The notes under the pieces were generated by a model. The model was not told the origin of the DNA. It saw only the letters and a program-made list of their open reading frames with translations, and made no database searches. Positions 8,814 to 45,800 of a DNA stretch of 64,000 bases are shown in pieces; the first letter of the stretch is position 1; each line of letters starts with the position of its first letter. This DNA is from Bdellovibrionota bacterium. GTDB lineage: Bacteria; Bdellovibrionota_C; UBA2361; JAAYZI01. Location: contig JBMNIF010000001.1 of assembly GCA_050950765.1 (NCBI GenBank), positions 32,001-96,000 on the forward strand, in the 5' to 3' direction. A program made the position numbers and the translations under genes.

Positions 8814-9018
8814 AAACCCTTTACGAAAAGATTTACGAAAAGAGGTTTAAAGCGATAAGGGGAGAGGTGAGCACAATCGGACTGTGCATGTTTGGAAAAA
8901 TGGCTAAAACCTTTTTTACGAAAAGAGGTTTAAAGAAAGAAGGGGAGAGGTGAGCGCGGTTGAACTGTGCATGTTTGGAAAAATGGTTAAAACCCTTTTA
9001 CGAAAAGAGGTTTAAAGC
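8814..9018. repeat. Tandem repeat, ~82-83-bp unit, about 2.3 copies, with internal palindrome
   Basis: ACGAAAAGAGGTTTAAAG at 8835, 8918 and 9000; AAACCTTTTT-TACG-AAAAGAGGTTT hairpin; lies between convergent genes. Confidence 0.88.
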
Positions 9019-15723: not shown

Positions 15724-16722
15724 ATGAAAAATTTTTTTGAACATCAAGAAAAAGCCAAAAACTATACGTTCTATCTATTGTTGTGTTGTCTTGTTACAAC
15801 AATAATCACAGCTCTTACCGTATCTCACGGAGTGTTGGGTCTTTTTTTATGCCTCGATAATAGTGAAGATATCAATTTATATTCGCAAGATTATCATCAG
15901 GCGATAGTTTTAATAAGTTGCATAGTAGTATTTATAATCTGTTGTGGTTCTCTTTATAAGATCTTTCAACTGTCAAAAGGTGGAAAAGTTGTCGCTAAAT
16001 TATTGGGTGGTACTTTAATTCCGACAGACACGCAGGATCCAAAGTTAAAAATGGTTTTAAATGTTGTGGAAGAGATGGCTATCGCTTCCAGTATTCAAAC
16101 CCCTCCCGTTTATTACCTTCCGAAAGAAGCTGGAATAAATGCCTTTGCCGCTGGATTTTCTACTGAAGATGCCATTGTTGCAGTAACTCAAGGTTGTATC
16201 GATAATCTATCTCGTGATGAGTTGCAGGGGGTGATCGCACACGAGTTTAGCCATATCTTTAATGGTGATATGCGTTTGAATATCCGATTGATGGGGCTTG
16301 TTCATGGGTTTTTGCTACTGTATTTAATCGGATGGTCAATATTAAGATTTATGCCACGCACAAGAAAGCGTGATAGTGATAGTAAAAGTGGTGCGCTTGT
16401 TTTTATTGTAGCTGTTGCGCTGCTTTTAATCGTTCTGGGCTCTATAAGCGCCTTTTTGGGGAATATAATCAAAGCCTCTATCTCTAGGCAGAGGGAGTTT
16501 TTAGCAGATGCGACTGCCGTGCAGTATACCAGAAACCCCGAAGGGATAGGAGGTGCCTTGAAAAAAATTCAGCTTTTAGCTGAAGGGTCTGAAATTAAAG
16601 CGCCTCATGCAAAAGAGGCAAGCCATATGTTCTTCTCGAATAATTTTAATGGTCTCTGCAAACGGCTATTAGCTACGCATCCGCCATTAGAGGAGCGTAT
16701 TCAAAGAATACTTACGCGCTAA
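15724..16722 (+). CDS. M48 family (HtpX-like) zinc metalloprotease
   Basis: INAFAAG, AHEFSH, RQREFLADA, THPPLEERI. Confidence 0.93.
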   Translation: MKNFFEHQEKAKNYTFYLLLCCLVTTIITALTVSHGVLGLFLCLDNSEDINLYSQDYHQAIVLISCIVVFIICCGSLYKIFQLSKGGKVVAKLLGGTLIPTDTQDPKLKMVLNVVEEMAIASSIQTPPVYYLPKEAGINAFAAGFSTEDAIVAVTQGCIDNLSRDELQGVIAHEFSHIFNGDMRLNIRLMGLVHGFLLLYLIGWSILRFMPRTRKRDSDSKSGALVFIVAVALLLIVLGSISAFLGNIIKASISRQREFLADATAVQYTRNPEGIGGALKKIQLLAEGSEIKAPHAKEASHMFFSNNFNGLCKRLLATHPPLEERIQRILTR

Positions 16723-20242: not shown

Positions 20243-20815
20243 CTAAAACTGCACCTTTGGTGCTTGATAAACCTCTTTTTCCTCTGCTTGATCTAACTCA
20301 AACAGATCTTGTTCCCTAAAGTTAAATAAATTAGCTATAAGAACATCAGGAAATTGTTGAATGGCGGTGTTGTATATCACAACTTGATTATTGTACTGCC
20401 GCCTACTCAAGCTTATTTTATCTTCGGTATCACGCAGCTCTTCCTGCAATTGTAAAAAAACAGTATTTGCTTTTAAATCGGGATAACTTTCAGAGAGTGC
20501 GAAGAGTTGTCTTAACGCTCCGGATAGGGCGTTTTCAGCCTGAATTTGCTGTCCGATATTTTGAGAATTGGTCACAGTTGTTGCAGCGTTTCTTGCAGCA
20601 ATAACGGCTTCGAACGTTTCTTTTTCATGAGAGGCGTAACCTTTGGCAACTTCAATAACGTTTGGAATTAAATCGTGCCGTCTCTTCAGCTGAACTTTAA
20701 TTTGCGACCACGATCCCACGCAGAGATTTCGTTTTCTTATCAAGCTGTTATAAATCCATATGATATATAACAAAATTATAACGATAGCGATGACTATTCC
20801 AGCAGTTAAAGACAT
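20243..20815 (-). CDS. lemA: LemA family protein
   Basis: QLKRRHDLIPN, GYASHE, ESYPDLKAN, YN...FP. Confidence 0.95.
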   Translation of the reverse strand: MSLTAGIVIAIVIILLYIIWIYNSLIRKRNLCVGSWSQIKVQLKRRHDLIPNVIEVAKGYASHEKETFEAVIAARNAATTVTNSQNIGQQIQAENALSGALRQLFALSESYPDLKANTVFLQLQEELRDTEDKISLSRRQYNNQVVIYNTAIQQFPDVLIANLFNFREQDLFELDQAEEKEVYQAPKVQF

Positions 20816-20956: not shown

Positions 20957-21096
20957 TAGATAAAAAACAAACTTCCGAAGGCAAGCCTTGCCAAAGACTG
21001 GAACAAAAACCTCACAAAGACTGGAATGAAAAGTCTACAAAGACTGGAATGAAAACTCCACAAACACTGGAATGAAGATTGCGCTAATACTTGAAA
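20957..21096. repeat. Array A1: 23-bp-period repeats CAAAGACTGGAATGAAA
   Basis: Units at 20992, 21015, 21038, 21061, plus a degenerate unit at 21084; preceded by TAGATAAAAAA and the palindrome GGCAAGCCTTGCC. Confidence 0.92.
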
Positions 21097-21147
21097 ATAC
21101 GATATACCTTCTTTAGGCTTCTTCGTTTTGAAAGTGAGATGTGGTTT

Positions 21148-22419
21148 ATGAAAAAGTATTTGCCGAGAATTATAGATAAATTATTGCGTGAAAGATTAGA
21201 AGCTAAAGGGGCAGTTTTATTAGAAGGTCCTAAATGGTGCGGAAAGACTACGAGTGCTAAAGAGATAGCGGGTAGTTTTATATCAATGGATCAACCTGAA
21301 ATGAGTGGGCAGTATCAATCTATGGCTGAACTCTCTCCACTAACACTATTAGAAGGCAAGCCTCCGAGATTAATAGACGAGTGGCAGATAGCTCCAAACT
21401 TATGGAATGCCGTTAGATATGCTGTCGATGAAAGAGATGAATTTGGTCAATTCATTTTAACAGGCTCTGCCGTCCCTGCACAAATAGATGAGTCCATGCA
21501 TACTGGCACGGGGAGAATTTCAAGACTTTATATGAGACCTATGAGCTTGTATGAGTCTAAGGATTCAAATGGCAAAGTTTCAATCGGAAACTTGTTTGCA
21601 AATAAGAAAATATCTACTAAAAGCGATACCGACTTAGAAGAAATAGCATTCCTAATTTGCAGGGGAGGCTGGCCAAAAGCGGTTGGTTTAGCCGAAAAGC
21701 AGGCTCTTTTTCAGGCAATAGATTATTTTGATGCCATCATATCGACCGATATAAGTAGGGTAGATTCTGTGAAAAGAGATAAGGAAAAAGCAAAAAGATT
21801 TCTAAAATCTTATGCAAGAAATGTCGGAACTAGAGCTACCCTAGAGACTATTAGACAAGATGTATTGTCTAATCATGCAGACACTTTCGACTCTGCTACG
21901 CTCTATTCATATAGAGATGCACTAACTAAAATCTTTGTTATTGAAGATGCGCCAGCTTGGAATCCGAACTTGAGATCAAAGGTTGCTATTAGAACGACGG
22001 ATGCAAGATATTTTGTTGACCCTTCAATCGCTGCAGCCGCTTTACAACTTGGTCCAAAAGATCTGTTAAACGATTTAAACACTTTTGGGCTTATCTTTGA
22101 AAATTTGTGTTTCCGTGATTTAAGAATATACGCAGACTATCTAGATGGCGATGTCTATCAGTATAGAGATAGTAGTGGATTAGAATGCGATGCGGTAATT
22201 CACTTAAGAGACGGCTCTTATGGTCTAATTGAAATAAAATTAGGAGGCGACACCTTAATTGAAGAAGGAGCAAAAAACTTACTAGACCTAGCCTCAAGGA
22301 TAGATACAAACAAAATGAAAGAGCCTGCTTTTATGCTTATTTTATGCGCCAAAGCTCCCTTTGCATATCAGAGAAAAGACGGGATTTGTGTGGTTCCTAT
22401 AACTAGTTTAAAACCATAA
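21148..22419 (+). CDS. AAA+ ATPase (AAA_14) with DUF4143 and C-terminal PD-(D/E)xK-like motif
   Basis: YLPRIID, GPKWCGKT, LIDEWQ, FILTGS, RGGWP, YFVDPS, ECDAV...IEIKLG. Confidence 0.9.
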   Translation: MKKYLPRIIDKLLRERLEAKGAVLLEGPKWCGKTTSAKEIAGSFISMDQPEMSGQYQSMAELSPLTLLEGKPPRLIDEWQIAPNLWNAVRYAVDERDEFGQFILTGSAVPAQIDESMHTGTGRISRLYMRPMSLYESKDSNGKVSIGNLFANKKISTKSDTDLEEIAFLICRGGWPKAVGLAEKQALFQAIDYFDAIISTDISRVDSVKRDKEKAKRFLKSYARNVGTRATLETIRQDVLSNHADTFDSATLYSYRDALTKIFVIEDAPAWNPNLRSKVAIRTTDARYFVDPSIAAAALQLGPKDLLNDLNTFGLIFENLCFRDLRIYADYLDGDVYQYRDSSGLECDAVIHLRDGSYGLIEIKLGGDTLIEEGAKNLLDLASRIDTNKMKEPAFMLILCAKAPFAYQRKDGICVVPITSLKP

Positions 22420-22573
22420 ACCCCCCAAAAAAACTCCTCCTTAGTTTTAAGTGTAAAATTTCAATTATATAACTTATTGAAATAATTTATAAAAAGTTAA
22501 AAATCGATCCTTTAAGGTGATTGTAGCCCTTAAAAAACATAGCATACGTAAAATAAGAAAAAAGTCTTAGAAT

Positions 22574-22711
22574 TAGATAAAAAATAAACTTCCGAAGGCA
22601 AGCCTTGCCAAAGACTGGAACAAAAACCTCACAAATACAGGAATGAAAAGTTCACAAAGACTGGAATGAAAACTCTACAAAGACTGGAATGAAAGCCCGT
22701 CAAACACTGAA
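22574..22711. repeat. Array A2: second copy of the A1 element
   Basis: Same leader and palindrome as A1; units at 22609, 22632, 22655, 22678, 22701. Confidence 0.92.
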
Positions 22712-22924
22712 AGTTTCTAAAAAATTCTCTAAGCTTAAGCTTTGAAGCGATATCTCCCTTTTCATCATTTTAGGTTTTTTCTAAATATTTTTATATCAAT
22801 CCCAGCTAGGTTCCTAACATACTGAAAAGATTAGATTGTTTTCTTTTGAAATTATAAAAAGACACTATCAAGTATCTTGCTTGCTACTACATTAGGTATA
22901 TTTTAAGTAAAAATTACATAAACT

Positions 22925-23045
22925 TAGATAAAAAACTAAAATCTAACGGGATATAAATTAGAAATTTGACCGAATGAGAATTGGAAATTTGACCGATTAT
23001 AAATTAAAAATTTGACCGAATAGGAATTGAAAATTTGACCGATTT
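22925..23045. repeat. Array B: 23-bp-period repeats AAATTTGACCGA
   Basis: Units at 22962, 22985, 23008, 23031, plus a degenerate unit at 22939; also preceded by TAGATAAAAAA. Confidence 0.92.
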
Positions 23046-23074
23046 ATGTTGTCTTTCTTTTTGGGAGATAAGTT

Positions 23075-24346
23075 ATGGATAGTCGATACTTGCCAAGATT
23101 AGTAGATAAATTAGTTGAGCTTAATTTAAAAGCCTTTGGGGCAATTTGTATTGAAGGTGCTAAATGGTGCGGGAAAACTTGGACATCAAGGTACCATTCT
23201 AAAAGTGCTATATATTTAGGAGACCCGAGCGAGAATTTTCAAAATAAAGAACTGATGCAATTAGCACCTAAAATAGCTTTAGATGGAGAAACTCCAAGAT
23301 TAATAGACGAGTGGCAGGAACTCCCTTCTGTTTGGGATACGGTAAGGCATGAAGTCGACAAGAGGGGGAAAAAAGGACAATTTATTTTAACAGGTTCATC
23401 AACACCAGTGCAAAAAGGTGTACTACATAGTGGAGCTGGAAGAATTTCTACTATTAGAATGAGACCCATGTCTTTATTTGAATCAAACGATTCATCTGGG
23501 CAAGTTTCTTTGCAGTCAATTTTTGATGGAACATTTGAAGCGGTAGCTCCCCCTAAAATCAATTTGCGGACGCTTATAGAGCTAACCGTTCGAGGTGGTT
23601 GGCCAGGTAGTTTAGGTTTGAGTTATGAAGAGTATAGTATAATCCCTAAAGAATATATAAGTTCGATAATAAACCATGATATTTATAGATTAGAAGGAAT
23701 CAATAGAAATTCAAAGAAGATGCATCGCTTATTAAAATCTCTTGCGAGAAATGAGTCGACAGTGGCTTCAATATCTACTTTAAGAGAGGATGTTAAAGAA
23801 TATGAGAACGATGCTCTCGATAATGATACGATCTCGGCATATTTAACTATATTTGAAAGATTGTTTTTAATCGATAATCAGAAAGCTTTTTCAAGTAATA
23901 TAAGATCTGCAACTCGTATTAAGCAGGCAGATAAGAGACATTTTGTAGACCCCTCTTTAGCTATCGCCTTATTAGATGCAAGTTATGAAGACTTGTTAAA
24001 CAATTTAAACGGATTTAGTTTTATGTTTGAGGCTCTTTGTGAGAGAGATTTAAGGATATATGCAGAAAGTTTAGGAGGTAAATTATATCATTATCAAGAT
24101 TATAAGAACAGGGAAATCGATGCGATTGTAGAGTTAAAAGATGGTAGGCTTGGAGCTTTTGAAATTAAATTAGGGGTGGAGGCTGTTGATAATGCAGCAA
24201 AGTCGTTAATAGAAATAAGGGATGCTCTAAAAGCCGAAGGCTCTAACAGGCTAGATGTTTTAGTTGTAATCTCTGGTCTAAGTAATTTTGCCTATCGCAG
24301 GGAAGATGGGGTCTATGTCGTGCCGATTACAACGTTAAGACCTTAA
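23075..24346 (+). CDS. AAA+ ATPase (AAA_14) with DUF4143, paralogue 2
   Basis: GAKWCGKT, LIDEWQ, RGGWP, HFVDPS, EIDAIV...FEIKLG. Confidence 0.9.
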   Translation: MDSRYLPRLVDKLVELNLKAFGAICIEGAKWCGKTWTSRYHSKSAIYLGDPSENFQNKELMQLAPKIALDGETPRLIDEWQELPSVWDTVRHEVDKRGKKGQFILTGSSTPVQKGVLHSGAGRISTIRMRPMSLFESNDSSGQVSLQSIFDGTFEAVAPPKINLRTLIELTVRGGWPGSLGLSYEEYSIIPKEYISSIINHDIYRLEGINRNSKKMHRLLKSLARNESTVASISTLREDVKEYENDALDNDTISAYLTIFERLFLIDNQKAFSSNIRSATRIKQADKRHFVDPSLAIALLDASYEDLLNNLNGFSFMFEALCERDLRIYAESLGGKLYHYQDYKNREIDAIVELKDGRLGAFEIKLGVEAVDNAAKSLIEIRDALKAEGSNRLDVLVVISGLSNFAYRREDGVYVVPITTLRP

Positions 24347-24469
24347 AAGTAAAGTTTTTAATTTTTAAACTTTTTAGGTTATTGTGCTGCTTTAGCGTAA
24401 ATTGGATATTTGAGGAGCTAAAAAACTACTCTAATAACTTGAGTGATATTAACTGATGGGGGTGAATAG

Positions 24470-24850
24470 ATGGAAAAATATTTTAGTGCAGAAGATAAAG
24501 TCAAGATACTCAAGGAGCATATGCTAGGTGAAGTGCCAGTATCGAACTTATGTGAAAAATACGGAATAAACGCTGATACATTTTATGAATGGCAAAATTT
24601 ATTATTTGAAGGAGCCATTCAAAACTTTAAGCATAAAAAGCGAGGTTCAAAAAAAGCTAAGAAGCAAATTGAACGGATAGATACTTTGGAGAAGAAAATA
24701 GCGAAGAAAGATTCCGCGCTAAAGGAGCTGTTGAAACTTCACATAGATCTAAAGAAAAAGCTCGGAGAGTTCTAACAGATCATGAAGCTAAGCTGCAAAT
24801 ACGAGATAAGAGGTGATAGACTTTGTAGGTAAATGATATAAGAGATCTGG
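24470..24850 (+). mobile_element. IS3-family remnant: OrfA (24470-24775) and decayed start of OrfB
   Basis: FSAEDKVKIL...LCEKYGI...FYEWQ HTH and coiled coil; downstream broken IRD..VIDFV with no intact DDE ORF. Confidence 0.7.
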
Positions 24851-24932: not shown

Positions 24933-26621
24933 ATGAAAATTGCTTCGGTTAAAATAAAGAATTTTAGAAGCTATAAAGATGAGGTAACCGTTGATTTTGA
25001 AAATTTAACGGTATTTGTAGGGAAAAATGATTCTGGAAAATCAACGATTTTAGAAGCACTAGATATATTTTTTAACGACGGAAAAGGGCTAGGCGTAACG
25101 AAGCTAGATGAAAACGATATAAATGTTGAGAACAAAAAAGCTGAAGATGGAGATAATGAGATCGAAATAACGGTCGTGTTTAAAGATTTGCCAGAAAAAT
25201 TAATAATTGATGCCACCGTTGAAACTACTTTAGAAAAAGAGCATTTGTTAAATGGCGATAAATTAGAAATAATTAAAAGATATAAAAACGCAGGTACTCC
25301 GAAAATTTGGATTAGAGCTAATCACCCTACTAATCCTAATTGTTCAGACTTATTATTAAAAAAACAAAATGAGTTAAAAAAAATTATTGAAGATAACAAT
25401 ATTGATTGCTCAGATCGGTCAGTTAACTCCGTGATGCGTGAAGCCATTTGGAAGCATTATGAAGATGATCTTAAATTAGATATTAAAGAAATAGATGTAT
25501 CTAAGGAAGACGCAAAACAGATATGGGAAAAAATAAATGCTTGCTTACCAGCTTATTCATTATTTAAATCTGATAGACAAAATACCGATAGCGATTCTGA
25601 AGTGCAAGATCCGTTAAAAAATGCGGTAAATATGATTTTTAAAGAAGATAATATTATAAATAAATTAGATGAGATTGCTAAAGAAGTTAAAGAGCGATTA
25701 GAAGATGTATCTAGTAGGACATCAAAAAAGTTAGAAGATTTTGATAAAAAAATAGCTGAAGAATTAAAGCCTGTGATACCACCAACAGACAAACTTGCTT
25801 GGAGTAGTGTATTTAAATCAGTTTCTATTTTTGGAGATAATATTCCAATTAATAAAAGGGGAAGTGGTGTAAAAAGACTTATTTTATTAAGTTTCTTTAG
25901 AGCAGAGGCAGAAAGGCAAGCACAAGAAAATAAAAAAACAAAAAATGGCGTTATATATGCCATAGAAGAACCTGAAACATCACAACATACAAATAATCAA
26001 AAAATTTTAATAGAAGCTTTAAAGAGTTTATCAGACAAAGAAAATATTCAAGTGATATTAACTACTCATAGTGCTTTTATAGTAAAACAGCTAGATAAAC
26101 TAGATAGAGAAAAAGCCGCTAAAGATGGTGCAAAACAGCCAGATTTTTCAAATATAAGGATCGTAAATAAAAAAGAAGACAATAAAGGGAGAATTTCAAA
26201 AGTTGAAAAAAGTAGTCTTACATATCCATCATTAAACGAAGTTAATTTTTTGGCTTATGATGAGACTAGTATTGAATATCATAATGAGCTGTACGGGGCG
26301 TTGGAGTCTATGTATAGAGAATATAAGGAAAAGAAGGAAGATGAGAAAGAAAGAAGTTCCTTTAATAGTTGGTTAAAAAATGAATTAGAAGAGGCAAAGG
26401 TAAATGATGTTGAATTGGATAAGGATTACTTTAACGATTTGTGGAAAAAGCAGGAGAAGACTACTTTACCTACTTATATTAGACATATGATTCATCATCC
26501 TGAAAATAAAAAAAATGAAGAGTATACCCCAAATGAATTAAAAAGGTCGATTGAATTACTAAGAGAAGTTCTTAATATGCAGAAATTAAAAAACGATAAG
26601 GAAAGGAGGATCTGTAAATAA
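24933..26621 (+). CDS. OLD-type ABC ATPase with C-terminal HEPN-like domain (candidate defence protein)
   Basis: IKNFRS, GKNDSGKST, GSGVKR, IYAIEEPE, LTTHS; C-terminal RHMIHH (R-x4-H). Confidence 0.75.
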   Translation: MKIASVKIKNFRSYKDEVTVDFENLTVFVGKNDSGKSTILEALDIFFNDGKGLGVTKLDENDINVENKKAEDGDNEIEITVVFKDLPEKLIIDATVETTLEKEHLLNGDKLEIIKRYKNAGTPKIWIRANHPTNPNCSDLLLKKQNELKKIIEDNNIDCSDRSVNSVMREAIWKHYEDDLKLDIKEIDVSKEDAKQIWEKINACLPAYSLFKSDRQNTDSDSEVQDPLKNAVNMIFKEDNIINKLDEIAKEVKERLEDVSSRTSKKLEDFDKKIAEELKPVIPPTDKLAWSSVFKSVSIFGDNIPINKRGSGVKRLILLSFFRAEAERQAQENKKTKNGVIYAIEEPETSQHTNNQKILIEALKSLSDKENIQVILTTHSAFIVKQLDKLDREKAAKDGAKQPDFSNIRIVNKKEDNKGRISKVEKSSLTYPSLNEVNFLAYDETSIEYHNELYGALESMYREYKEKKEDEKERSSFNSWLKNELEEAKVNDVELDKDYFNDLWKKQEKTTLPTYIRHMIHHPENKKNEEYTPNELKRSIELLREVLNMQKLKNDKERRICK

Positions 26622-27027: not shown

Positions 27028-27618
27028 TTGGTGGACATTACTCTGACTTTATGTCTCATTATTGTAATTTTGTTGGTAATTAAAATTTACAACAAACTTA
27101 TACGTCTTCGGAATATTTGTAGAAATTCATTTTCACAAATAGATGTACAACTAAAGAGGCGACACGATTTAATCCCTAATTTAGTTGAAGTTACAAAAGG
27201 CTACATGAAATATGAAAGAGAAACGTTCGAAGCCGTTATTAAAGCACGGAATGAAGCAACTTCAGCTATAAAAGAGCTAAATTCAAAGCGGTTACTGAGT
27301 GCAAATGCTATGGCAGGGGTGGCAGGAGCTGAAAGCAATTTAAACAACGCTTTATCGCAGCTGTTTGCGTTAGTAGAGGGGTATCCCGAACTTAAAGCAA
27401 ATGAGGCGATGCAAAATTTAATGGAGGATCTACGCTCCACCGAAAATAGAATCGCTTTTGCCAGACAGGTTTATAATGATGCTGTTATGAATTACAACAC
27501 TAGGTGCGAACTCTTCCCTCATTTTTTTGTGGCGAAGCTATTTAATTTTTCAACGGCTCCTCTCTTTGAATTAGATAATGAAAGTGAACGAGCAGCGATT
27601 AATCTTACCTTTTCATAA
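27028..27618 (+). CDS. lemA: LemA family protein
   Basis: QIDVQLKRRHDLIPNLV, YPELKAN, TENRIAFARQVYND. Confidence 0.95.
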   Translation: MVDITLTLCLIIVILLVIKIYNKLIRLRNICRNSFSQIDVQLKRRHDLIPNLVEVTKGYMKYERETFEAVIKARNEATSAIKELNSKRLLSANAMAGVAGAESNLNNALSQLFALVEGYPELKANEAMQNLMEDLRSTENRIAFARQVYNDAVMNYNTRCELFPHFFVAKLFNFSTAPLFELDNESERAAINLTFS

Positions 27619-27784: not shown

Positions 27785-29401
27785 CTACACCTTAGTATTT
27801 AATATTTTATCGACAAAAATCTTCTGGTCAATTTCTAATGCTTCTAAAATATCTTTTTGTTTTTTTGTTAATGGCTGTAGTAGCATGCTCAGATTTTCAT
27901 TATCTATGCGTCTTATCATTTTAAGCGCTTCTAAAACTCTCTGAATGGTTTTTTCTACTTTTTTGTTATTATTATTTATAGTTCTTTGTAAGTCTGACCA
28001 CATAATTAAGCTAAGAAAGGAGACGAAGCTTTTGCCGTCAGTAGTTTTTTCATTATGTGTTAGCATACGGTCATTATCCAATTCATTTTTTAAATTATCG
28101 AAAGCTTTCTCAATAAAGTCTCGTCGTGAATAGATATGAAGTGCTTCTTGTGGTGTCATTGTTGAGTGGTTACTCAAAAAAGCAAAAACTCCTAGCATAG
28201 ATAAGATATCGGTAATTTTTTCATGATCCCTTTCAAAACTTTCTAACTGCACTTCTTTCTTAGTTTTTATTTTGTAGTATTTAGAGTAGCGACTCATACT
28301 CATAGGCTTTTTCATTTCTTTTAGTTCATCTTCTAATCTGTCAATATGAGAGTAAAGAGTGCTCTCTTCCTCAGATGCACTTTTTGTATTTAAGTAAACG
28401 TAGAGAGAAAATTTTTCTCCATTTATCACAATATCTTTTCTTACCCCATAACAATTTGTCCCAGATATGTGATTCCTAGAAGAGCGAAGAGTAACAGATG
28501 CTTCCCTCATAGTATCGTTGTAATTTTTCTGAGATTTAGGAACAGCTACGAGAAATTCTATTTGCTCTTTTTTTATATATTCTAAATTTTCTTTTGTAAT
28601 AAAACCTCTATCCAGAACATAAAATATATCATCAATACCTAAGCTTTTAGAGTATTCCATCATTGTTGTAAGAAAAACTTTATCAACAACACTTCCACTG
28701 TAAAGAAAAAAACTTATTGGTAAATTGCTGTCGGTAGCGTATAAAAGTCCGACATTTAGTTGTGGTAAATATTCTTTGTCTCTATTGTATCCATTCTCGG
28801 CAAGTGGCAAGTCTGCATAAGTAGAAAGGCTCGTAACATCATAAGCTACAGTCTCATTGTTTTTCATAGCATGGTTTTTCCACACAGAAAAAAACTTCAT
28901 TTGATCTTGTTTGGTAATCGATGAAAAAAGCTCACTTGTCTTTTGCGAGGATAGAGATATGTTTTTAGGGGTAAGAGTATTTTGCAAAAAATTATCTATA
29001 TTCATCATTACATTGCCTTCGCAAGCCATGTATAACGCAGTATAAAAGATATCTTCGTATTTATCGGGAAAGATTGTTTTTAAGCATTTTAATAACCCTA
29101 TAGCCTCAGCTCTCATTTTTAATGCGACTACGTGACCTGCGTCCCAAACAAAGCGAGAAGAAGCTAGATCAATAACGTCAGATGGCATTGGATAATATTT
29201 TCTAAAGTTCTCATTAGGAATCATTCTTCCTTGTCTATCAGGGTCTATCTTTCCCACAATCACTTCATCACAAGTAGGTGTGCCGTTCTTATTACGACGA
29301 TGACCAAGTACGTGATACACATACTTTACGTTCCCTTTGTTATCTTTTTTATACGAAATCTTTTTTTCTGGAATTGGAATTGAAATATTTATTAAAGCCA
29401 T
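27785..29401 (-). CDS. IS1634-family DDE transposase
   Basis: YDVTS, GYNRD..LPQ, VLDRGF, YSRRDFIEKAFDNLK. Confidence 0.9.
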   Translation of the reverse strand: MALINISIPIPEKKISYKKDNKGNVKYVYHVLGHRRNKNGTPTCDEVIVGKIDPDRQGRMIPNENFRKYYPMPSDVIDLASSRFVWDAGHVVALKMRAEAIGLLKCLKTIFPDKYEDIFYTALYMACEGNVMMNIDNFLQNTLTPKNISLSSQKTSELFSSITKQDQMKFFSVWKNHAMKNNETVAYDVTSLSTYADLPLAENGYNRDKEYLPQLNVGLLYATDSNLPISFFLYSGSVVDKVFLTTMMEYSKSLGIDDIFYVLDRGFITKENLEYIKKEQIEFLVAVPKSQKNYNDTMREASVTLRSSRNHISGTNCYGVRKDIVINGEKFSLYVYLNTKSASEEESTLYSHIDRLEDELKEMKKPMSMSRYSKYYKIKTKKEVQLESFERDHEKITDILSMLGVFAFLSNHSTMTPQEALHIYSRRDFIEKAFDNLKNELDNDRMLTHNEKTTDGKSFVSFLSLIMWSDLQRTINNNNKKVEKTIQRVLEALKMIRRIDNENLSMLLQPLTKKQKDILEALEIDQKIFVDKILNTKV

Positions 29402-33285: not shown

Positions 33286-33568
33286 CTTTGGGGACAATCG
33301 AACGGGCTGCAACTAAAAAACGAATCAGCTAGATTTTGACGGAGGTAAAAGTACTTTTTAAGGACAATAGAAGGGGCTGTTATTAAAAACGAGTCAGCTA
33401 GATATTTACGGAGGTAAAAAGCGCTCTTTATGGACAATAGAAGGGGCTGCTATTAAAAAACGAATCAGCTAGATCTTTACGGAGGTAAAAAATTAACATT
33501 TTTTAAGGACGCTCGAACGGGCTGCTACTGCAAAACGAATCGGTTAGGTTTTGACGGAGGTAAAAAAA
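33286..33568 (+). repeat. Tandem array (4 units, ~70-77 bp) of the GGAC..CGGGCTG..CGAAT..GCTAG..ACGGAGGT family
   Basis: Four ACGGAGGTAAAA cores; same family as the 42.7-45.8 kb arrays. Confidence 0.9.
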
Positions 33569-43889: not shown

Positions 43890-44385
43890 GCTTAGTGCCA
43901 CCCTTCAGGGACAACTGAACGGGCTAGAACTGCAAAACGAGTTAGCTAGATCTTCACGGGGGTTAAAAAACTGCTGCCACCCTTCAGGGACGATCGGACG
44001 GGCTGATACTAAAGAGCGAATTAGCTAGGTCTCTACGGAGGTTAAAAATTTGGTGCCACCCTTCAGGGACGATCGGACGGGCTGATACTAAAGAGCGAAT
44101 TAGCTAGGTCTTTACGGAGGTTAAAAATTTGGTGCCATCCACTAAGGACGATCAGTGACGATCGGACGGGCTGATACTAAAGAGCAAGTTGGTTAGGTTT
44201 TGACGGAGGTCAAAAATCTTTTCCATACCTTTCAATGACGGCTGAACGGGCTAGAACTGCAAAACGAATTAGCTAGATCTCTACGGAGGTTAAAAATTTA
44301 GTGCCACCCTTCAGGGACGATCGGACGGGCTGATACTAAAGAGCAAGTTGGTTAGGTTTTGACGGAGGTCAAAAATCTTTTCAAG
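43890..44385 (+). repeat. Tandem array of ~79-bp units (same family)
   Basis: CCTTCAGGGACGATCGGACGGGCTGATACTAAAGAGC at 43981, 44060 and again near 44308. Confidence 0.92.
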
Positions 44386-45167: not shown

Positions 45168-45800
45168 ACTTTTTACCTCCGTAAAGATCTAACCAATTCG
45201 TTCTTTAGTTGCACCCCATCCGATCTTCCCTGAAGGGCGACACTTTTAACCTCCGTAAAAATCTAGCTAATTCATCTTGCAGTTACACCCCGCTCCATTG
45301 TCCTTTAAAAGTGTTTTTACCTCCGTCCAGATCTAACCAATTCGTTCTTTAGTAGCAGCCCGTTCGAGCGTCCCTGAAGGGCGACACTTTTTAACCTCCG
45401 TAAAAAACTAGCTAATTCATCTTGCAGTTACACCCCGCTCCATTGTCCTTTAAAAGTGTTTTTACCTCCGTAAAGATCTGGCTAATTCGTTCTTTAGTAG
45501 CAGCCCGTTCGAGCGTCCCTGAAGGGCGACACTTTTTAACCTCCGTAAAAAACTAGCTAATTCATCTTGCAGTTACACCCCGCTCCATTGTCCTTTAAAA
45601 GTGTTTTTACCTCCGTAAAGATCTGGCTAATTCGTTCTTTAGTAGCAGCCCGTTCGAGCGTCCCCAAAGAGTGTTAATTTTTTAACCTCCGTAAAGATCT
45701 AACCAATTCGTTCTTTAGTAGCACCCCGTTCGAGCGTCCCCAAAGAGTGTTAATTTTTTTACCTCCGTAAAAACCTAGCCGATCCCGCTTTGCAAGTCTT
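45168..45800 (-). repeat. Inverted array of the same family, 9 units with alternating A/B higher-order structure
   Basis: ACCTCCGT at 45175, 45249, 45319, 45394, 45464, 45539, 45609, 45685, 45761; dimer period 145 bp. Confidence 0.92.

Follow-up and report, generated by a model that had tools for sequence, protein, structure and literature searches.

The window examined here is a stretch of 64,000 nucleotides (64 kb; G000:C1:32001-96000) from the 2.64-Mb genome of a Bdellovibrionota bacterium. It carries two neighbouring genes, called here ATPase 1 and ATPase 2, which encode AAA+ ATPases joined to a nuclease domain and are each preceded by an array of direct repeats with a 23-bp period. The comparisons reported below suggest that each array is quite probably the cognate operator through which the gene behind it represses itself. 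The locus comprises the following features:

20957..20989, + strand: leader TAGATAAAAAA and a unit in decay; probably the eroded remains of array units, without family-wide status
20990..21104, + strand: array 1, four good CAAAGACTGGAA-type 23-bp units that have G at position 11, and a fifth unit
21079..21119, + strand: putative ATPase 1 promoter, by homology (TTGCGC-18-TATACC, compared with TTGCAC-18-TATAAT in relatives)
21148..22419, + strand: ATPase 1, 423 aa, with an AAA+ domain, a helical lid, a predicted winged helix and a PD-(D/E)xK nuclease
22574-22710, + strand: orphan array, leader plus a duplicate of array 1 (113/120 identical, 94%)
22925..23051, + strand: array 2, leader, one decayed upstream unit and four good AAATTTGACCGA units with C at position 11
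23027..23055, + strand: putative ATPase 2 promoter, by homology (TTGAAA-17-TG.TGTCTT)
23075..24346, + strand: ATPase 2, 423 aa, with the same architecture as ATPase 1 and with D aligned to residue 250

The original prediction, which was made from this DNA alone, placed an exact 23-bp array of four to five units ahead of each ATPase gene. This description holds, as Tandem Repeats Finder detects both arrays (20992-21076 and 22956-23042) plus a third one at 22609-22709; array 1 is made up of four good units and a divergent fifth, and array 2 of four good units and a decayed one. The fifth unit of array 1 is embedded in the putative promoter, of which it holds the spacer, and it has a T at position 11, as in the relatives that bear V250 (see below). 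The 12-mers of the units of both arrays are absent elsewhere in the genome, and phased unit pairs (at least 11/13 matches, 23 bp apart) are found in it only at these arrays. The third array, which had gone unnoticed, is an orphan: it lies downstream of ATPase 1 and has neither a promoter unit nor a gene. Two other loci (L009 and L177) keep the order of ATPase 1 and ATPase 2 and include a third paralogue, and in L009 some 35 bp alone separate the first stop codon from array 2; the orphan array is thus the relic of a local duplication. The leader TAGATAAAAAA does stand ahead of all three arrays, as had been noticed for the two ATPase genes, but it fails as a family feature: with at most one mismatch, it occurs in just 3/112 array-bearing upstream regions, two of which belong to the window genes, and it was consequently rejected as a recombination or family signal. 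Since the leader of array 2 is in register with the A-tract of the unit scaffold described below, the leader is probably one or more eroded array units.

Related loci were gathered by protein (80 genome and 80 metagenome loci) and by family, and their 317 open reading frame (ORF) matches were reduced to 259 by removing duplicates, genes with less than 150 bp upstream, runs of N and lengths outside 340-500 aa. An array was called when the three-unit periodicity score at period 23 was at least 20. Both window proteins belong to one clade of 123 genes (support 1.0). This score is reached by 113 of them (27/27 after dereplication at 80%), against 0/136 DUF4143 genes of other clades, so that the enrichment of upstream periodicity which had been expected among homologues is found in this clade. 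In the window's own genome, 4/1468 ORFs score at least 20 and 2/1468 at least 25, the latter being the two window genes. A control on adjacent ORFs, which omits those sharing the same intergenic array (17/530 when they are included), returns 1/496, and this single case is ATPase 2 itself. Among held-out loci, 56/65 have an array overall; the figure is 50/58 for those less than 95% identical to the first set and 44/49 for those less than 70% identical. The 338 units of the clade share a scaffold, with A at position 4 (96%), GAAT at positions 12-15 (82-88%) and an A-tract; inside this scaffold, positions 5-11 form a variable core. Because this scaffold is common to both arrays of the window, whose cores agree at 5/13 positions, their units are related, contrary to what had been proposed. 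The spacing of the units is exact, and some members have arrays grown to 6-9 units. The carriers belong to Bacillota, Spirochaetota, Bacteroidota, Actinomycetota, Planctomycetota and other groups, with relatives in different phyla at 85-90% identity, and across phyla the unit follows the protein, not the host.

The position of the arrays relative to the promoters is consistent with an operator. In close relatives, the last unit lies between the -35 and an extended -10 box, for example in TTGCAC-18-TATAAT. In 88 of 113 clade genes with an array, the two overlap when the best sigma-70-like promoter is taken, and in 75 of 113 the -10 box of this promoter begins at a unit phase of 20-22. The window genes may be weakly expressed in this bacterium, judging from their promoter sequences. 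ATPase 1 has a possible alternative promoter after a short insertion (TTGAAA at 21091, a 17-bp spacer and TAGGCT at 21114), and the -10 box of ATPase 2 is without the conserved A that is present in all eight relatives displayed.

The two proteins are 41% identical to each other. Both match Pfam AAA_14 and DUF4143 above the curated cut-offs, as well as the PADLOC profile PDLC04790 of PDC-S01 (E about 1e-60); no NCBIfam family was found for them, and no solved structure among their sequence relatives. The full-length structure model (pLDDT, or predicted local distance difference test, of 90.7) comprises the AAA+ domain, the helical lid, an H-H-H-beta-beta segment at residues 212-290 and a nuclease fold. 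In ATPase 1, the putative winged helix covers about residues 212-290, with a recognition helix at 249-261 that includes A250, and the nuclease residues are D348, E362 and K364. Over residues 1-300, the top structural match is the archaeal ATPase Paby2304 (2QEN; Z 14.3, root-mean-square deviation 4.2, 255 aligned residues), followed by the archaeal ATPase SSO1545 (2FNA; Z 13.7, root-mean-square deviation 4.9, 262 aligned residues) and then by STAND, MuB and ORC/Cdc6 proteins; the Orc1/Cdc6-DNA complex 2QBY is matched by Foldseek (E 5e-6). The likeness to 2QEN, 2FNA, Orc1/Cdc6 and STAND AAA+ proteins leaves the C-terminal nuclease uncovered. From this topology and these matches, residues 212-290 are predicted to form a winged-helix DNA-binding domain. 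The winged-helix topology falls inside the 2QEN/2FNA alignment, the matches to the Trans_reg_C profile are weak (E 0.003-0.03), and the segment modelled in isolation gives a low-confidence model (pLDDT 56, best Z 4.3).

The proteins are under purifying selection, with a ratio of nonsynonymous to synonymous substitutions (dN/dS) of about 0.06 (0.058) for ATPase 1 and 0.075 for ATPase 2. Residues K33, D77, E78, D348, E362 and K364 are invariant in 114/114 clade genes, and Walker A/B, the sensor, R123, R130 and E318/D348/E362/K364 are kept in 113-114 of 114; together with the domain matches, the invariant catalytic residues uphold the description of these proteins as an AAA+ domain joined to a PD-(D/E)xK-like end. 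Oligomerisation on the array is plausible in view of the invariant arginine-finger candidate R123 and the exact phasing of the units. A homodimer prediction with ATP/Mg scored 0.00, which speaks neither for nor against self-association.

Co-change between protein and unit was evaluated by parsimony on the tree for 4298 residue-base pairs and 300 null sets, using 114 of the 123 clade genes (nine with weak or unframed arrays were left out). The best of the 4298 pairs links residue 250 to base 11: of the 13 branches with a change at base 11, 10 also have one at residue 250, where 2.5 would be expected (p=7.4e-6), a result that 0/300 null sets reached. This residue stands at the start of the predicted helix 249-261, within the H-H-H-beta-beta segment of the full-length model. 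The pairings are N with T (31/31), V with T (26/27), D with C (19/21), E with C (16/17; 35/38 for D/E together), K with G (4/4) and A with G (2/2). They resemble textbook preferences between side chains and bases; two of them, N-T and D/E-C, turn up repeatedly, in separate subclades. In the window, ATPase 1 combines A250 with G11, its V250 relatives having T11, and ATPase 2 combines D with C11. In held-out genes, residue 250 ranks first of 349 columns for base 11 when the 36 genes with a clear frame are used, and second of 362 when all 50 are. Along with the clade-wide arrays over the promoter, this co-change supports the cognate recognition and autoregulation that had been suggested for the two genes.

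One might suppose instead that the arrays are sites for a host factor or promoter-derived duplications unrelated to the protein, the co-variation reflecting common ancestry alone. Array and gene are indeed linked and inherited together, and the prediction of held-out bases is modest (see below). Yet the unit follows the protein rather than the host, two different units are present in one genome, and the tree-corrected co-change is centred on one recognition-helix residue, with pairings that recur in separate subclades. A host factor or an unrelated duplication is therefore very improbable.

The array is a real cis element of the whole clade and most likely the operator by which the protein represses its own gene, an autoregulation akin to that of Rep/iteron systems or C-proteins and without a role as an origin. 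The protein would combine an Orc1/Cdc6-STAND-like AAA+ domain, a winged helix and a restriction-type nuclease. Its recognition helix would read the common scaffold and the variable core, with one protomer per 23-bp unit arranged head to tail, and binding would probably be cooperative, by way of AAA+ contacts that depend on ATP. The -35 box and the spacer of the gene's own promoter lie in the last units, so that occupancy of the array would repress the gene and keep the active nuclease scarce. Foreign DNA is the usual guess for the target of the nuclease. Protein and array would evolve together, so that paralogues in one cell would stay orthogonal, and array, promoter and gene would travel between genomes as one portable unit.

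Parts of this arrangement are known from other systems. The C-proteins of type II restriction-modification systems and AbiEi of type IV toxin-antitoxin systems act on an operator over their own promoter and so curb a dangerous enzyme once it has been transferred horizontally; in those loci the regulator is a separate protein, whereas here regulator, ATPase and nuclease would be contained in one polypeptide. The iterons of plasmids (P1 RepA, F RepE, pPS10 RepA) are direct repeats, phased at about two turns, whose reader is a winged helix, and the Rep proteins act in addition as repressors of their own promoter. The arrays and the predicted winged helix resemble them in repeat geometry and in the probable reader, but Rep proteins have neither AAA+ nor nuclease domains, and the arrays described here are mostly chromosomal and lack an origin context. 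Similarly, Orc1 binds origin boxes to load the helicase, whereas the sites in the window lie on the gene's own promoter.

The original prediction had likened the arrays to iterons and the proteins to their initiators. That the arrays are replication-origin iterons would fit the kinship in fold to Orc1/Cdc6 and to further AAA+ proteins with a winged helix, as well as the period near two helical turns. Nevertheless, relatives are found on 8/72,556 plasmid records (E<=1e-40) and 4/50,697 phage records (E<=1e-20), and the GC-skew minimum of the genome is on C2 at about 610 kb, away from the window, which lies in a contig with overall rising skew. This rarity and the location of the minimum argue against an origin, and also against a classic transposon. 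Moreover, the genomes of relatives contain up to 43 family matches, and initiators are not known to include a fused nuclease. An origin role is thus scarcely credible.

Some observations weigh against cognate autorepression. The promoter search always returns a best site, here in AT-rich DNA, and its picks for ATPase 1 and ATPase 2 fall outside the counted units; a consensus scanner calls neither of the window promoters, both -10 boxes being degenerate (TATACC and TGTCTT). A fixed code between residue 250 and base 11 is right for 19/42 held-out bases (13.1 expected, p=0.027, with kin that are not independent), a figure that is the same under the first framing and when the units are framed over all 23 frames. 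Position 10 fits the fixed code better in these genes (24/42), and the base actually read is therefore unsettled in distant members. After correction, no further residue-base pair remains (56% of the null sets reach 248-12), and the whole winged helix is not enriched for co-change (14/924 pairs versus 8/826 in the lid). Finally, the invariance of the ATPase and nuclease residues is not explained by repression alone.

The surroundings of the genes bear on what else the arrays may do. DNA similarity to close relatives mostly starts in the array and stops at most a few bases from the stop codon, with variable neighbours, in agreement with the idea of a self-contained module made up of array and gene. 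Most loci (88/93) hold a single family member. Among the 66 flanking proteins of 33 loci (two paralogue neighbours omitted), 43 have Pfam matches, and these include no transposase, integrase or Rep. Seven neighbours resemble proteins of defence or toxin-antitoxin systems (PIN, KilA-N, AbiEii, KAP NTPase, dynamin, Macro and Fic), and no methylase or antitoxin partner was seen among the flanking proteins. The arrays were also considered as the ends of elements in general and rejected as such, as just four loci (the window, L187/L192 and L189) of those scanned in the clade have a second array copy. With second copies this rare and no recombinase among the 66 neighbours, neither a transposon nor an integrative element is indicated and the suggested role in mobility finds no support. 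A search for empty sites in two genera (41 genomes each, without detailed alignment) returned mosaic regions and no clean empty site.

Several loci contain apparent decay products of the module. In G132:C211, an apparent internal deletion has removed the promoter and most of the gene. At L187:5298-5455 and in L192, an array is joined directly to an internal gene fragment.

Another possibility is that the array serves chiefly as a platform for assembly, where the nuclease is docked or licensed (for addiction, as a defence trigger or for self-spreading), repression being a by-product, a scenario that overlaps with autorepression. The retention of the ATPase motifs, of R123 and of the nuclease residues in nearly all clade genes would be expected of such a platform, as would the exact spacing, the arrays of 6-9 units and the solitary genes amid unrelated neighbours across phyla. 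Nevertheless, the lack of transposase, integrase and Rep families among the Pfam-matched neighbours, the small number of loci with a second phased cognate array and the absence of reported protection against T7, T5 and T4 by one PDC-S01 member make it quite unlikely. A bolder conjecture, still rather unlikely, is that the family is a single-polypeptide self-licensing nuclease. An ATP-dependent polymer would form on a private phased array via a retargetable residue-base code, and the array would both silence the gene and restrain the nuclease; release by array loss, by a DNA mimic or by a nucleotide change on infection would trigger cutting for addiction, defence or the element's own spread, with clades varying the geometry (23-bp, 33-bp or palindrome). 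Foreign DNA is the usual guess for the target of the nuclease.

The autorepression proposed here adds to a family known mostly from surveys. PDC-S01, a phage-defence candidate in PADLOC, is equivalent to AAA_14 plus DUF4143 and to COG1373, both window proteins matching the profile and both domains. In the accessible parts of the literature, it is portrayed as the fusion of an ATPase with a PD-(D/E)xK domain and called the fourth most common prokaryotic defence system, with multiple cross-domain transfers (PMC12988326); it is reported as the most frequent locus in rumen genomes (PMC13356809), and DUF4143/COG1373 is listed as being of unknown function (PMC3424549). One PDC-S01 gene assayed against T7, T5 and T4 was outside the four protective systems (10.1101/2024.09.26.614923), the portion seen of the main text of another study does not name S01 (10.1101/2024.01.29.577857), and a Thermus AAA_14/DUF4143 gene is reported to be up 6.6-fold when plasmid and Argonaute are both present (PMC4406477). 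An operator, an array or recognition by a winged helix is not mentioned in the accessible parts of the PDC-S01 literature, and no description of the arrays was found in the literature on DUF4143, PDC-S01 and COG1373/PF13173/PF13635, with subscription journals lying outside this coverage. According to the same partial sources, this reportedly fourth most common candidate defence gene has no assigned substrate yet, and one negative phage test. A cognate site, a predicted specificity residue and two adjacent orthogonal protein-array pairs put binding, repression, the geometry of the oligomer and the triggering of the nuclease within direct reach of experiment. The proposal also suggests that an ORF cloned without its array or behind a foreign promoter could miss its function, and repressor-array pairs that are orthogonal and follow a simple code could be useful as tools.

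Other repeats occur upstream of DUF4143 genes outside the 23-bp clade. Arrays of 32-34 bp are present in 12/136 genes of other clades, and 42/136 have a promoter palindrome in the last 60 bp upstream, compared with 0/123 in the 23-bp clade, 2/400 genome genes and 1/408 shuffles. In short clades (385-400 aa; L101, L103, L105, L107, L114, L118, L146 and L147), the palindrome covers the -35 and -10 boxes and abuts the start codon, which suggests leaderless transcripts. The two other DUF4143 paralogues of the window's genome have two palindromic units 22 bp apart (L001:900-960, on G000:C2 at about 588,350) and a palindrome around the -10 box (L004). Upstream of the 23-bp array, the unrelated loci L051 and L239 have a separate repeat with a 42-bp period, about 240-270 bp upstream of the gene, and L190 a 32-bp array about 226 bp upstream of the gene.

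In the window itself, the ATPase pair is part of a small island of defence-like character that two lemA genes flank. These LemA-like genes (20243-20815 and 27028-27618) have upstream regions that are 77% alike over 126 bp. A multi-copy element at 24380-24835, which includes an HTH_Tnp_1 ORF (24470-24775) and has five other copies in the genome at about 78% identity, is probably an insertion sequence remnant. Just downstream, an ATP-binding cassette-type ATPase (AAA_15) with 30% GC occupies 24933-26621, its best PADLOC matches being AriA, Old and GajA. Several similar ORFs at 15724, 29641 and 30735 are presumably HtpX-like, and a DDE transposase (27785-29401) is inserted among the LemA-like and HtpX-like ORFs. 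Tandem arrays with units of 70-83 bp lie at 33292-33566, 43895-44376, 45170-45779 and 8832-9018; the first three share sequence, and all are possibly miniature mobile repeats or similar to repetitive extragenic palindromes (REP-like).

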